Shown: piece after piece, positions 16,301-60,510 of the stretch
How the letters are laid out: every line of letters begins with the position of its first letter
Position numbering within the stretch: the first letter of the stretch is position 1
From: Candidatus Campbellbacteria bacterium
GTDB lineage: Bacteria; Patescibacteriota; Minisyncoccia; Phycocordibacterales; EsbW-18
Direction of reading: 5' to 3'
Assembly: GCA_045863475.1 (NCBI GenBank)
Contig: BTUR01000002.1
Location: forward strand, 410-64,409
DNA length: 64,000 nucleotides
Notes under the pieces: generated by a model
The model's database searches: none
What the model was told of the DNA's origin: nothing
Seen by the model: only the letters and a program-made list of their open reading frames with translations
Translations under genes and position numbers: made by a program

Positions 16301-16381
16301 TGTGCGAACAGTATAACACCACGTGTTAAGGTTGTCTTTTCCCGATAATTCTCTATACTATTTTTAGATGTTCCACAATAT

Positions 16382-16680
16382 TCCGGTGTAGCTCAATGGT
16401 AGAGCAGCGCCCTGTAACACTTGCAGCTTTCTCGAGTAATCGAGATCGAACACGAGGTGAATTCGGTGAAACCCTTCATGTATTTGTGGGGCAATACCGA
16501 GCCAAGCCGCGCACGGCGCGGAAGGTGTAGAGACTATCCCTTCAGGGAGTACTTCTTCGGAAACGAAGCGGGAAGCGCCTCGCCCCCATCATGGTGGGGT
16601 GATGATATAGTCCATACCTGTAGGTAACTACGGGATTCTATGTAAGGCGTTGGTTGTAGGTTCGAATCCTACCACCGGAG
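16382..16680 (+). tRNA. tRNA-Asn(GUU) interrupted by a group I intron. Exon 1 is 16382..16415 and exon 2 is 16643..16680.
   Basis: The spliced product TCCGGTG TA GCTC AATGGTA GAGC A GCGCC CTGT|TAA GGCGT TGGTT GTAGG TTCGAAT CCTAC CACCGGA G has U1-A72 and a CUGUUAA loop, as in bacterial tRNA-Asn. Confidence 0.7.
16416..16642 (+). ncRNA. Group I self-splicing intron (about 227 nt, no internal ORF) in the anticodon loop between nt 35 and 36
   Basis: P1 (exon CUGU : IGS GCAG, U.G at the splice site), P2 CTCGA-GTAA-TCGAG, P7 GACUAU/AUAGUC with a G-binding site, GAAA and GUAA tetraloop hairpins (P8/P9), and an omega-G at 16642. Confidence 0.7.
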
Positions 16681-47196: not shown

Positions 47197-47343
47197 CAGC
47201 CCGCTCCGGGCCACGACTTTGCCGCCGCTATCGTTTTTACAACGATGACGGCGGCATTTCTTTTGTACCCTGTTGCTCCGCGGCATTTTTTGTTGTAGTA
47301 TCGTTTGCACCGCCCACGGGGCGACTTTTCTTTTATGGATGCC

Positions 47344-47455
47344 GTTAGAGATATCATAGGTTCTCTAAACAAAATGCATAAAAATACTGAGTATAGAAAA
47401 TAAATTTACGAAATCGACATCACTACGGAAAACAAAGTTTTCCCATCTCTAACGG
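47344..47455 (+). repeat. Perfect 11-bp inverted repeat pair (CCGTTAGAGAT ... ATCTCTAACGG) enclosing a 90-nt AT-rich spacer and ending 1 nt before the typA ATG
   Basis: Left arm 47344-47354, right arm 47445-47455. The same arms recur before rnc. Confidence 0.7.
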
Positions 47456-47456
47456 T

Positions 47457-49241
47457 ATGGAAGTACGAAATATAGCCATCATCGCGCACGTCGACCACGG
47501 AAAAACGACACTCACCGACGCCCTCTTACGTCAGTGCGGCGCCGTCGCCGAGGGTATTACCATGGACTCCAACACACTTGAACTTGAGCGTGGTATTACC
47601 ATTTACGCAAAAAATGCATCGGTGTCGTACCGTGGCACCAAAATCAATATTGTGGACACGCCCGGACACGCTGACTTCGGTTCAGAGGTGGAGCGCGTGC
47701 TTCGCTCGGTGGATTCCGTGCTGCTCGTTGTTGATGCGCAGGAAGGCCCCATGCCGCAAACTCGGTTTGTTTTGAAGAAGTCACTTGAGCTCGGCTTGCA
47801 CCCCATCGTCGTTATCAACAAAATCGATAAGCCGGCGGCAAATCCTGCACACGCGGAAGAGCTCGTGCTTGAGTTGTTTCTTGAACTCGGTGCAAACGAT
47901 GAACAGGCGAATTTTCCCGTGGTGTACGCAGTCGGCCGCGAGGGTATTGCCAAGAAAAAACTTGAAGACACTTCAACCGACCTCACACCGCTTCTTGACG
48001 TCATCCTTGAACACGTGCCGGCGGCAGGTGCGGGGGATGAGAATAAAACACTCCGTCTACAACCGTTTAACCTCGGCTATGACAACTTCCTCGGGCGTCT
48101 TGCCGTTGCGCGTGTCTATGAAGGCAGTGTGTCAGCGAACCAAAACGTGTTCATAAAAAAGGCAACCGGAGAAACGCGTGAGGGAAAAATCACCAAACTG
48201 TTTACATTCAAAGGACTTGAAAAGGTGGATTCTAAAGAAGCCGGTGCAGGTGACATTGTCATGATTGCCGGATTGCCGGATATTGATATTGGCGAGACGG
48301 TGACGACGGACGCATCCGTGGAGCCGTTGCCGGCGATTGCTGTTGATGAGCCGACCATCACGCTAAACTTTTTGGTGAACAACTCGCCGTTTACCGGACG
48401 CGAGGGAAAATTTGTGACCTCACGGCAGATTCGCGAGCGCCTGGAGCGCGAGCTTGAGGTGAACGTCGGATTACGCGTGGATTTCGATACATCTGAAAAC
48501 TTTGTCGTCTCGGGGCGCGGTGAACTGCACATCGCAATTTTGCTTGAAAACATGAGCCGCGAGGGGTATGAACTGCAGGTGTCACAGCCGCACGTCATCA
48601 CCCACGAAGAGAATGGAGTAAAAACGGAACCGTTTGAAGAAGTGGTTGTGGACACGCCGAACGAATTTCAAGGAGTCGTTATTGAACGCCTTGGTAAGCG
48701 CGGATTCGTCCTGCAAAACATGCGCATGCACGGAGAAACCGTCCGCCTCATTTTTGAAGGTCCGACGCGCGGTCTTTTGGGATACCGAAACCAATTCATT
48801 ATTGATACAAAAGGCGAGGGGATACTCTCCTCGCGCGTTGTCGGCTTCAAACCGTTTGCCGGCGAGATTGTGAAGCGTCCGACGGGTTCGATGATTTCCA
48901 TGGTCTCCGGCAAGACGCTCGGATATGCGCTCTGGAACTTGCAGGAGCGCGGCGTGCTGTACGTCGGTCCGGCGACTGAAGTGTATGAAGGCATGGTCAT
49001 CGGCAACACATCCAAGGGTGAGGAGATGCCAGTGAATCCGACGAAGGGAAAACAGCTGACCAACATGCGCGCATCTGGCTCTGATGAAGCGATTAACCTC
49101 GTGCCGCCGTTCACACTTTCCATTGAGCGCGGGCTGGAAGTCATGGCGGACGATGAGTATCTCGAAATCACACCGAAATCCGTTCGTCTGCGCAAACAAC
49201 ACCTCTCCGAGCTTGAACGAGCCCGCGCTCGCAGAAGTTAA
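47457..49241 (+). CDS. typA: Translational GTPase TypA/BipA
   Basis: [14 protein letters not shown]1, DTPGHADF G2/G3, NKIDK G4, and a C-terminal BipA domain. Confidence 0.9.
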
Positions 49242-57208: not shown

Positions 57209-57793
57209 ATGAAAACCGTCATCGGCATAGACGAAGCAGGCAGGGGACCACTAGCCGGACCGGTTGCCGTCGGATGTGTGGTGATTCGCTCACGCGCGGT
57301 GTACAAAGCGTTTCCACGCGTACGGGATTCCAAGAAGCTTTCACCGCAACGTCGCGATGAGTGGTTTGCCAAAATCCGTCGTCTCAAAAGGGAAGGTGCA
57401 CTTTCATATGCCGTTCGAATGGTTAGTGCGTCCCTCATAGATACACACGGCATCGTTTGGGCGATTTCACGCGGGATTACGTCGGCGCTGAAGGGTGTTG
57501 ATGCCCGCCCGGGTATGAATGTGCTTTTAGACGGCGGATTACGTGCCCCACAGGAATACACACACCAAACAACCATTATTAAAGGAGATGAAAAAGAGCT
57601 TGCGATTGCGCTTGCTTCCATTGCGGCGAAAGTGACACGCGATCGGTACATGGTGAGAGTTGGGAAGCAATACCCGCGCCATGGATTCGGGATTCATAAA
57701 GGATATGGGACAAAAGCGCATGCGCGGGCAATACGAAAATTTGGAGTGACGCCCCTACACCGAAAGACGTTTTGCCGTGCTTTGACAAAATAG
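57209..57793 (+). CDS. rnhB: Ribonuclease HII
   Basis: GIDEAGRGPLAGPV signature. Confidence 0.9.
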   Translation: MKTVIGIDEAGRGPLAGPVAVGCVVIRSRAVYKAFPRVRDSKKLSPQRRDEWFAKIRRLKREGALSYAVRMVSASLIDTHGIVWAISRGITSALKGVDARPGMNVLLDGGLRAPQEYTHQTTIIKGDEKELAIALASIAAKVTRDRYMVRVGKQYPRHGFGIHKGYGTKAHARAIRKFGVTPLHRKTFCRALTK

Positions 57794-57810
57794 AAATAAA
57801 ATGATACTAT
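57782..57810 (+). promoter_or_regulatory. sigma70 promoter with extended -10 (TTGACA-17-TGaTACTAT) for cassette F
   Basis: TTGACAaaatagaaataaaaTGaTACTAT. It overlaps the rnhB stop. Confidence 0.5.
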
Positions 57811-58809: not shown

Positions 58810-59709
58810 ATGAGTAATCGCCACTTAGCGAGATCAGTTGTTCTTCAGACGCTTTTCCAGATCGATTTCTCCTCGGTATCACCGAAGGAGGCCGATGGGA
58901 TTCTATCGCATGTCGCGGACGAATACGCGCCCGGCATCAGCGAGAAGGATTTCATGAGATCGCTCTTGAAAGGAGTTATCCAGAAGCGTAAGGATCTCGA
59001 CACCATCATCGAGAAGGCCGCACCTGAGTGGCCGATAGACAAAATCTCGCTTGTTGACCGAAACGTTCTGCGTCTCGGACTCTTCGAACTTCTGTTCGGC
59101 GACCGCGCGCACGTACCGGCGAAAGTCGCCATCAACGAAGCCATCGAGCTTGCCAAAAGCTTCGGTGGGGACTCAAGCGGTCGCTTCGTCAACGGCGTGC
59201 TCGGTTCCGTCTACAAAGAACTCGGCGAGCCGGGGAAAAACGAAACGTCAAAGAAGAAAAAAGATGTGCCGTATGATGAGATGCCGCAAGAAGTACTCGG
59301 CGGTGCATTCGTCTACGCGCGCCACGAGGATGACATCTACATCGCGTTTGTGCACGACGTATTCGGTCACTGGACGCTTTCCAAGGGTCGGATTGAAAAC
59401 GGTGAAGACGTGCGCACGGGAACGGCGCGCGAGATTCAGGAAGAATTGGGTCTGGAGGTGGCGATTCAGGAAGAAATTGGCAGCAACGAGTACATCGCAT
59501 CGCATCCGGAGAAGGGAAAAATGCGCAAGCGCGTCACGTACTTTATTGCAGAGGCACCGTTTCGCGATTTGAAACTTGGCACGTCCGGCGGTCTCGACGA
59601 TGCTCGATGGTTCCGCCTCAGTGAAATCGTGAATCTCAATATCTACGACGACATTCTGCCGCTCATCACAAAAGCAATCACTCTGCTCTCACAAAAGCAG
59701 CACACGTAA
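58810..59709 (+). CDS. nusB: NusB (antitermination factor) fused to a C-terminal NUDIX hydrolase domain
   Basis: N-terminus ARSVVLQTLFQIDF...AINEAIELAKSFGGDSSGRFVNGVL is NusB. The C-terminus has GRIENGEDVRTGTAREIQEELGL, a canonical NUDIX box. Confidence 0.75.
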   Translation: MSNRHLARSVVLQTLFQIDFSSVSPKEADGILSHVADEYAPGISEKDFMRSLLKGVIQKRKDLDTIIEKAAPEWPIDKISLVDRNVLRLGLFELLFGDRAHVPAKVAINEAIELAKSFGGDSSGRFVNGVLGSVYKELGEPGKNETSKKKKDVPYDEMPQEVLGGAFVYARHEDDIYIAFVHDVFGHWTLSKGRIENGEDVRTGTAREIQEELGLEVAIQEEIGSNEYIASHPEKGKMRKRVTYFIAEAPFRDLKLGTSGGLDDARWFRLSEIVNLNIYDDILPLITKAITLLSQKQHT

Positions 59710-59717
59710 TCATGAAT

Positions 59718-59817
59718 CCCGTTAGAGACCACTCGCGTATGTTCGTGCCCACTATTCAAAAAATATTGATGTATTGTTCGTATGCACACGAAAGTGTGAT
59801 AACCATTCTCTAACGGG
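59718..59817 (+). repeat. Second copy of the inverted-repeat pair (CCCGTTAGAGA ... TCTCTAACGGG) with a 78-nt spacer, ending 1 nt before the rnc ATG
   Basis: Left arm 59718-59728, right arm 59807-59817. The spacer is unrelated to the copy before typA. Confidence 0.7.
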
Positions 59818-60510
59818 ATGAAAGATTTTGCTCCACTAGAAAAAAAAATCGGACACACATTCGCCGACCAGTTTTTGCTTACAACGGCGTTGACGCATCG
59901 CTCCTTTATCAATGAGTCACGCAAGCACGGCGGCACGCACAACGAGCGTCTTGAGTTTTTGGGCGACGCGGTCTTGGAACTCATCACGACGGAATTTTTG
60001 TATGCACGCTACCCGCACAAAGCGGAAGGCGATCTCACCTCGTACCGTGCAGGACTCGTCAATACGTCCACACTTGCAACGGTTGCACTAGAGCTGGGTG
60101 TCAACGACTTTTTGCTGCTGTCAAAAGGAGAGTCAAAAGATACCGGTCGCGCGCGGCAGTATATTCTTGCCAACGCGTTTGAGGCAATCGTCGGTGCGTT
60201 GTTTCTCGACGGCGGTTACGAAGCCGCCCGTGCATTCGTTTCAAAGTTCCTCTTGCCGCTGACGGAAGATATTGTCGGCAAACACCTTTGGCGCGACGCA
60301 AAAAGCCGTTTTCAGGAAAAAGCGCAGGAGAAAGTCGGTATCACACCGTCGTACAAAACAACCCGGGAAGTAGGACCCGACCACGACCGCGAATTTACCG
60401 TTGCCGTTTTTTTGGGCGACGAGAAAGTTGCCGAAGGGGCGGGGAAGAGCAAGCAGGAAGCGGAACAGTCCGCTGCGGGCAACGCACTTGAGAAGAAACA
60501 CTGGTCTTAA
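59818..60510 (+). CDS. rnc: Ribonuclease III
   Basis: ERLEFLGDAVL RNase III signature and a C-terminal dsRBD. Confidence 0.9.
   Translation: MKDFAPLEKKIGHTFADQFLLTTALTHRSFINESRKHGGTHNERLEFLGDAVLELITTEFLYARYPHKAEGDLTSYRAGLVNTSTLATVALELGVNDFLLLSKGESKDTGRARQYILANAFEAIVGALFLDGGYEAARAFVSKFLLPLTEDIVGKHLWRDAKSRFQEKAQEKVGITPSYKTTREVGPDHDREFTVAVFLGDEKVAEGAGKSKQEAEQSAAGNALEKKHWS

Follow-up and report, generated by a model that had tools for sequence, protein, structure and literature searches.

In Escherichia coli, the gene rnc for RNase III is autoregulated, and the rncO stem-loops upstream of it are cut by RNase III, whose typical substrates extend over roughly two helical turns. Insertion sequences of the IS1380 family, as classified in ISfinder, have repeats beginning with CC and produce target duplications of 4-5 bp. 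In eukaryotes, introner elements are known in which the end of a DNA transposon and the target duplication together recreate a splice site. The Rickettsia palindromic elements (RPEs) are small, palindromic and mobile, and essential genes tolerate them in their interior or at their margins (PMC10969869). The Correia elements of Neisseria (CREE/NEMIS) can alter the expression of adjacent genes, and their RNA hairpins are bound or cut by RNase III, as described in a report on these elements (PMC2649163) and in a review (PMC10969869). This review, published in 2024 on prokaryotic MITEs, contains neither the term 'start codon' nor the name 'Patescibacteria'.

Here we describe an inverted repeat directly upstream of rnc in the window, by which we mean the whole stretch of DNA analysed (64 kb). 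A first-pass annotation had taken the repeat for a regulatory leader. The presumed leader is built like an inserted transposon: it has terminal inverted repeats and a target-site duplication, and relatives show the corresponding sites empty. We consider it probable (roughly 0.85) that the element is a MITE-like insertion of about 102 bp, non-coding and non-autonomous, which is incidental to rnc and rebuilt the ATG of the gene with its own end.

Two start-codon copies in the window

The features around rnc are as follows.

58810-59709, + strand: NusB-NUDIX fusion gene, upstream (Pfam NusB 9.9e-33, NUDIX 1.1e-12; stop codon TAA at 59707-59709)
59712-59716, + strand: left target copy (A plus TGAA), the ancestral rnc start codon by comparison with the empty site of relative L123
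59712-59813, + strand: upstream ORF of 33 codons (MNPVRD...), with the old ATG as start
59717-59728, + strand: left terminal inverted repeat TCCCGTTAGAGA, 12 nt, with positions invariant in an alignment of 47 family members that were themselves chosen by exact arms
59729-59806, + strand: element interior, 78 nt, GC 0.40 versus 0.527 in the window
59785-59798, + strand: local hairpin CACAC-GAAA-GTGTG within the interior, predicted in the MFE and centroid folds
59807-59818, + strand: right terminal inverted repeat TCTCTAACGGGA, which ends with the A of the rnc start codon
59819-59822, + strand: right copy of the 4-bp target-site duplication, TGAA
59818-60510, + strand: rnc (RNase III, 230 aa; Pfam Ribonucleas_3_3 3.6e-38, dsrm 5.2e-16)

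The left arm CCCGTTAGAGA at 59718-59728 and its exact reverse complement TCTCTAACGGG at 59807-59817 are separated by 78 nt, exactly as the first-pass annotation had it. The single nucleotide that it had placed between the right arm and the rnc ATG (59818-59820) does not exist, the gap being 0 nt. The stem of about 11 bp that it had described is based on real arms and is one pair longer, since the pairing amounts to 12 bp once T59717/A59818 is counted, A59818 being the A of the rnc ATG; the 13th, inner position of the arms is a mismatch in this copy. The direct repeat ATGAA, which the first-pass annotation had missed (as it had the one at typA), brackets the copy at 59712-59716 and 59818-59822, so that the site reads ATGAA-T-CCCGTTAGAGA ... 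TCTCTAACGGG-ATGAA. In the predicted folds of the rnc transcript (MFE and centroid), the arms are paired over a 13-position stem that encloses the A of the ATG, and the predicted stem comprises 12-13 paired positions and a 4-bp extension into the flanks. The upstream ORF starts 2 nt past the nusB-NUDIX stop, is terminated by the TAA at 59811-59813 within the right repeat, and ends 4 nt ahead of the rnc ATG. The gene preceding it encodes NusB and a NUDIX hydrolase fused in one protein of 299 aa (58810-59709), and this fusion is kept in all relatives examined.

The sister copy, 12 kb upstream, lies on the start codon of typA.

47335-47461, + strand: typA sister copy on the start codon, consisting of ATGGA, TGCCGTTAGAGA, a 94-nt interior, TCTCTAACGGTA and the duplicated TGGA

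Its arms (47341-47351 and 47446-47456) carry one mismatch each, and the direct repeat ATGGA brackets the copy at 47335-47339 and 47457-47461, in the order ATGGA-T-GCCGTTAGAGA ... TCTCTAACGGT-ATGGA. Both copies directly adjoin an ATG, and the phasing with start codons that had been noticed for them holds. The interiors, which had been called unrelated, are 51.5% identical between the rnc and typA copies, which is the background level. Four arm-like matches with at most one mismatch were observed in the window versus 0.72 expected, and none of 100 shuffles gave four, in agreement with the earlier view that two such copies are not due to chance. The symmetry alone could also be that of paired operator half-sites for a DNA-binding regulator, or of a chance palindrome; chance is excluded by the shuffles, and the insertion polymorphism and duplications described below are unexpected of operators, so that we give this explanation a negligible likelihood. 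Rfam 15 at the gathering score had no match at either element site in the window, and permissive Rfam scans of the rnc copy and of one canonical copy returned only noise (E > 0.6).

The sites are empty in relatives

The closest relative, L123, has an Rnc that is 97% identical and no element between the nusB-NUDIX stop and rnc, the junction being TAA-tc-ATGAAAGAT. To this empty site, TAAtcATGAAAGATTTT, corresponds TAAtcATGAA / T-element- / ATGAAAGATTTT in the window, where the rnc site is otherwise the same but longer by 106 bp, with ATGAA repeats as the borders of the extra sequence. The element was missing upstream of rnc in all five relatives (L123, L124/L125, L126/L127 and L128; Rnc identity 78-97%), in which the distance from the nusB-NUDIX stop to the rnc ATG is 2-4 nt, but 38 nt in L126/L127. 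Because a relative with a 97% identical Rnc does not carry the element, the insertion at rnc is recent.

The first-pass annotation had drawn a connection between the stem and RNase III itself, and the empty sites bear on whether the stem is a dedicated leader of rnc, acting as a substrate or sensor of RNase III through which the gene is autoregulated. The element does lie directly ahead of rnc with the predicted stem given above, and in one report RNase III binds or cleaves other MITEs, the Correia elements of Neisseria (PMC2649163). At rnc, however, the element is missing in every relative examined, including the one with the 97% identical Rnc, and identical arms precede dozens of unrelated genes. 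The stem is also below the length of about two helical turns. We consider a dedicated rnc leader very unlikely, and the proposed link with RNase III is not supported.

The typA site is likewise empty in L129 (TypA 92% identical), L132, L134 and L136, where it reads ...gacttttcttttATGGAAGT (TypA identity range 81-92%). The insertion at typA measures 122 bp; both this and the 106-bp insertion at rnc are outside the ORF and not in frame. An outgroup, L073 (TypA 74% identical), has an element at the same ATGGA of typA, and its interior is 50% identical to that of the window copy, as compared with 49 +/- 4.5% for random pairs. Since the two interiors are no closer than random ones, the start of typA was most likely hit twice, independently, by unrelated members of the subfamily. 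In-frame elements read as N-terminally extended TypA proteins were considered and rejected, as none of the proteins starts with M-x-PVRD.

The native leader of typA is itself conserved in the window (47258-47334) and in L129, L132 and L134. It has a -10-like TTGTTGTAGTAT, a GC hairpin whose stem covaries (CGCCC-ACG-GGGCG / GCCC-GAGA-GGGC), and then a U tract running into the AUG, and it resembles a terminator or attenuator directly ahead of the start codon.

A covariance model was built from 47 elements, all from other genomes. In the 64 kb of the window it found only the two copies (typA, 68.7 bits, E 1.5e-12; rnc, 53.0 bits, E 4e-09), and in 74 kb from relatives it found one more, at 994-1101 of L128. 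This variant copy, with the compensated arms CACGTTAGAGA / TCTCTAACGTG, is located just after the gene for RNase HII. Its target was the TTGA within a perfect TTGACA-N16/17-TATAAT promoter, the -35 box of which is restored by the duplication, and the window is empty at the corresponding site (about 57790-57800).

Members of the family in other genomes

A public scan of one genome per species with the pattern CCGTTAGAGA-N70-100-TCTCTAACGG gave at least 120 loci, whereas the rough chance expectation for 20 specified bases in the scanned collection is about 17. Judged by record title, the hosts among the matches listed are mostly Patescibacteria, and they also include Omnitrophota, Planctomycetota, delta-proteobacteria, Elusimicrobiota and others. 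We found no paper on the arm sequences, on MITEs of CPR/Patescibacteria or on start-codon MITEs, and the family is large and apparently undescribed. Its members are 95-130 bp long (median 119) and contain only short ORFs of variable length. Their ends are a terminal inverted repeat of 12-13 bp, (T/C)CCCGTTAGAGA(Y), with a matched short direct repeat in the flanks. The 13th terminal pair covaries (UA 23, CG 20), and variant subfamilies show compensating changes in the inner arms (AGAAG/CTTCT, AGAAA/TTTCT and CACGTTAG/CTAACGTG).

We refer to the copies whose right repeat ends in A as the A-ended subtype, which was found in Patescibacteria-labelled genomes among the matches listed. An exact 5-nt flank match is present in 46 of 65 such copies (ATGAA in 31, ATGAG in 6, ATGGA in 5, and others), and the matched flanks differ from copy to copy. 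In L016, L029 and L114, a left flank with GTG or TTG corresponds to a right flank with ATG, so that the A belongs to the repeat and the duplication is 4 bp (TGNN). The base before the duplicated TG in the left flank is A, G or T, and rarely C. In this subtype, the terminal A and the duplicated TG regenerate an ATG.

The interiors in the family are AT-rich and diverse. Two pairs of copies at different sites of the same genome have similar interiors, with identities of 98.8% (L055/L065) and 84.7% (L053/L114) against a background of 49 +/- 4.5%, and the interior of the rnc copy has no similarity to any other family interior compared. A genome can hold multiple copies, with two in the 64-kb window and two or three loci in several MAGs. 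Solo arms in the fetched loci were mostly chance 9-mers, and viral contigs gave 0 matches. In about 0.97 Mb of loci, a search for repeat pairs 160-4000 bp apart with matching duplications revealed tandem arrays and one 190-bp copy only, and no autonomous insertion sequence with the family repeats. Since no autonomous element or transposase was found there, we infer the mobility of the element from the comparison of genomes only. At the level of sequence, the insertion, the duplication, the large multi-copy family, and the start-codon and orientation bias described below are well documented.

Some members have unusual arrangements. Tandem arrays of two or three copies occur in L037 (5474-5709) and L005 (5900-6277), with one GATGAATC common to each junction, and the middle member of the L005 array has diverged yet complementary arms (CCCGTAGT.. 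/ ..ACTACGGG). At 2776-2888 of L070, an element lies between divergent genes with inverted flanks (GCGCTCAT / element / ATGAGCGC), so that at either end ATGAGCGC faces an ORF of 60 codons or more. A nested extra arm near one end (CCGTTAGAGAAC-TTCG-TCCTCTAACGG) was seen in L004, L084, L055, L065, L116, L013, L039 and L108. This nested-arm subfamily, from Omnitrophota, delta-proteobacteria and other MAGs, has two further covarying hairpins, and every arm has a local and a distal pairing partner.

Preference for start codons and a covarying hairpin

In the A-ended subtype, the junction ATG opens an ORF of 60 codons or more in at least 57 of 70 copies. A further eight have only a short ORF at the junction, and tandem arrays account for at least some of these, as their inner members. 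The junction ORFs that were tested (RuvC, RNase H, ribosomal protein L9, an exonuclease, PheT, an epimerase, two adenylate kinases, MetRS and DnaG) were real genes in ten of ten cases, with Pfam domains starting at residues 1-9. Under a crude gene model, the unoccupied ATGRR sites in the same loci comprised 179 ORF starts, 722 other non-coding sites and 3342 sites inside ORFs. From the 179 starts and 722 other non-coding sites, even tolerance would predict about 20% of insertions at starts; the observed occupancy of start codons is at least 81%, about four times that expected from tolerance alone. The plain MITE model does not explain this bias.

Many copies also have a hairpin near the gene, 2 nt inside the arm (AC, GG-N5, loop, N5-CC). 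In the typA copy it is GGAAAAC-AAA-GTTTTCC at 47427-47443, and the 68.7-bit match of the covariance model to this copy is full-length and includes the hairpin. In 38 copies the hairpin is next to the gene, and in only 3 does it lie at the far end; of 76 copies, 28 have a perfect 7-bp stem on the gene side and 4 have one on the opposite side, with 30 distinct stem sequences. Double changes were seen in all five aligned pairs of the hairpin, and none of 500 shuffles matched the observed covariation. By strand, the model scored 68.7 bits in the sense of the gene versus 32.6 bits.

The fixed orientation bears on an invertible promoter switch, in which the inverted repeats would be recombination sites for flipping the interior and turning rnc and typA on and off. 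An AT-rich segment between inverted repeats directly upstream of a gene is what such a switch would look like. However, 38 of the 41 informative copies have the interior in the same orientation with respect to the gene, the empty sites and target duplications indicate insertion rather than inversion, and no recombinase was present among the neighbouring window ORFs that were checked. Moreover, the 78-94 nt between the arms are too short for known invertases. A switch of this kind is extremely unlikely.

The same data raise the possibility that the gene-proximal end of a once-mobile element (AC, the 7-bp hairpin, UR, UCUCUAACGGG and AUG) now serves as a 5' leader or translation start region and is kept by selection. 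This would be compatible with insertion as a MITE, and would explain both the fixed orientation and the exact position on start codons; the excess of hairpins at the gene end with many different stem sequences, the covariation in all five pairs, the higher score on the sense strand and the fourfold occupancy of start codons all point towards it. Against it, the rnc copy does not have the canonical hairpin: its CACAC-GAAA-GTGTG hairpin is out of the canonical register, and the alignment to the model skips the canonical hairpin positions there. Promoter-like sites are not enriched in the sense orientation (39 sense, 39 antisense and 33 in shuffled sequences), and an outward promoter in the element was rejected on these counts; a simple promoter scan found none at the rnc or typA copy. 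Element-free genes do not have a comparable hairpin ahead of the start, and the idea that the hairpin mimics a native leader was discarded. Finally, G-U versus A-C mismatches had no significant sense-strand bias (9 versus 6 in the hairpin, 4 versus 6 in the arms), so that the mismatches do not favour a role of the hairpin in RNA over one in DNA. We regard the exapted leader as a tentative possibility, one that we would not favour on the present data. The wider proposal that the A-ended subtype is a start-codon-specific mobile leader, either through transposition that recognises start sites and not TGNN alone, or through selection that, in Patescibacteria with no Shine-Dalgarno sites, keeps the hairpin and the UCUCUAACGGG-AUG leader, seems to us similarly doubtful. 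The high occupancy of start codons, the rarity of C ahead of the TG, the two hits on typA and the 38:3 orientation of the hairpin speak for it. If it is true, a selfish element would also supply housekeeping genes with 5' ends that are portable and exchangeable.

Probable translation of rnc behind the element

On the preferred reading, a MITE-like insertion, the element entered the ancestral start codon of rnc at its TG and duplicated the 4-bp target TGAA; the terminal A of the right repeat and the duplicated TGAA then rebuilt ATGAA. Because the right repeat ends in A, ATGAA is intact and the reading frame of rnc is untouched. The old start codon now opens the short upstream ORF, which runs into the element.

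A stop and a start codon a few nucleotides apart are the classic arrangement for translational coupling, and from the stop-start spacing in the relatives, rnc was probably coupled in this way to nusB-NUDIX before the insertion. Motifs like the Shine-Dalgarno sequence precede 10.8% of the well-defined starts in 65 Patescibacteria loci and the window, versus 12.4% of random 17-mers; the values are 15.2% for the genes of the window and 1.8% upstream of the old start copies. These bacteria thus do not appear to use Shine-Dalgarno sites, and loss of such a site by the insertion was set aside as not applicable, there being no enrichment in the genomes. Given the lack of Shine-Dalgarno use and the coupling of nusB-NUDIX with rnc, ribosomes that finish nusB-NUDIX probably restart on the old ATG and translate the 33-codon ORF through the element. 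A ribosome on this ORF would melt the 12-bp stem, in which the A of the rnc start codon is otherwise paired, terminate at the TAA in the right repeat, and restart 4 nt further on at rnc.

Such a relay from NusB-NUDIX through the upstream ORF to rnc might operate, and would then be specific to the rnc copy. An upstream ORF stays open as far as in the rnc copy in 20% of shuffles of the interior. Within the family, the stop codon of the upstream ORF falls inside the element in 45 of 54 cases, and no fusion in frame occurs; coupling through upstream ORFs was rejected as a family-wide mechanism on these grounds. As most members do not have an open upstream ORF, the relay would be limited to the rnc copy. 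A promoter inside the element would be an alternative to the relay, but the promoter-like sites counted above show no excess in the sense direction.

Significance

The analysis removes a false lead, in that no conserved stem for self-regulation stands ahead of rnc. In its place there is a family of elements of about 100-120 bp, with 12-bp ends identical from Patescibacteria to Omnitrophota and Planctomycetota, one subtype of which repairs the start codons of essential genes. The family may be regarded as a natural experiment on translation start in bacteria that seem to do without Shine-Dalgarno sites, and as a means of tracing recent gene flow between uncultured lineages that occur together. 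It is also a likely source of start-codon mis-annotation and of spurious short upstream ORFs in metagenome-assembled genomes.

Another feature of the window is a group I intron (RF00028, 60.3 bits, 16405-16634) that interrupts an apparent tRNA gene at 16375-16680 on the + strand. The split tRNA halves around it are 5' TCCGGTGTAGCTCAATGGTAGAGCAGCGCCCTGT and 3' ...GGTTCGAATCCTACCACCGGAGC, and ARAGORN made no tRNA call there.

Comparison with described elements

The family has the features by which MITEs are recognised, namely terminal inverted repeats, a target duplication, small size without a transposase, multiple copies and precise empty sites. Two other classes were considered and rejected: an integron attC-like site, because the order of the core is reversed, and an IS200/IS605-like end, because the flanks are true matched duplications. 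The (T/C)CCCG... ends and the 4-bp duplication fit the IS1380 family, but unlike IS1380, no IS1380-like transposase or full-length element with the family ends was seen in about 0.97 Mb.

The rncO region of E. coli and the rnc copy are alike in that a structured region lies directly upstream of rnc. In contrast to rncO, the element at rnc is not conserved in relatives, its stem is short, and the same sequence stands before unrelated genes.

The Neisseria CREE/NEMIS elements resemble the rnc family in more respects, since both are non-coding and about 100-150 bp long, are bounded by terminal inverted repeats and a short duplication of the target, adjoin genes in many copies, and show insertion polymorphism between strains. 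They differ in the repeats (12-13 bp in the rnc family versus 26 bp in Correia elements) and in the duplication (TGNN, 4 bp, versus TA). Unlike Correia elements, the Patescibacteria subtype is placed exactly on start codons with the ATG rebuilt, keeps one orientation and carries a hairpin that covaries at one of its ends, and the arms of the family are identical across several phyla.

In their relation to coding sequence, the rnc and typA copies (106 and 122 bp) are outside the ORF, whereas RPEs are translated within the host protein. The family does have RPE-like relatives, which are G-ended and lie in frame inside long ORFs with lengths that are multiples of three. These members, from Omnitrophota, Planctomycetota and other MAGs, are found in L084 (2768-2876), L093 (4673-4772), L075 (6330-6426) and L032 (6336-6423 and 6920-7019), as insertions of 117, 108, 105, 96 and 108 bp in frames of up to 2666 codons. 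Their lengths in open frames suggest, on sequence grounds, that they are translated in-frame insertions like RPEs.

Introner elements belong to another domain of life and recreate a splice-site signal, while no splicing is involved in the rnc family. Like introners, however, the rnc family recreates the signal that it interrupts, which is the start codon or, in L128, the TTGACA -35 box.
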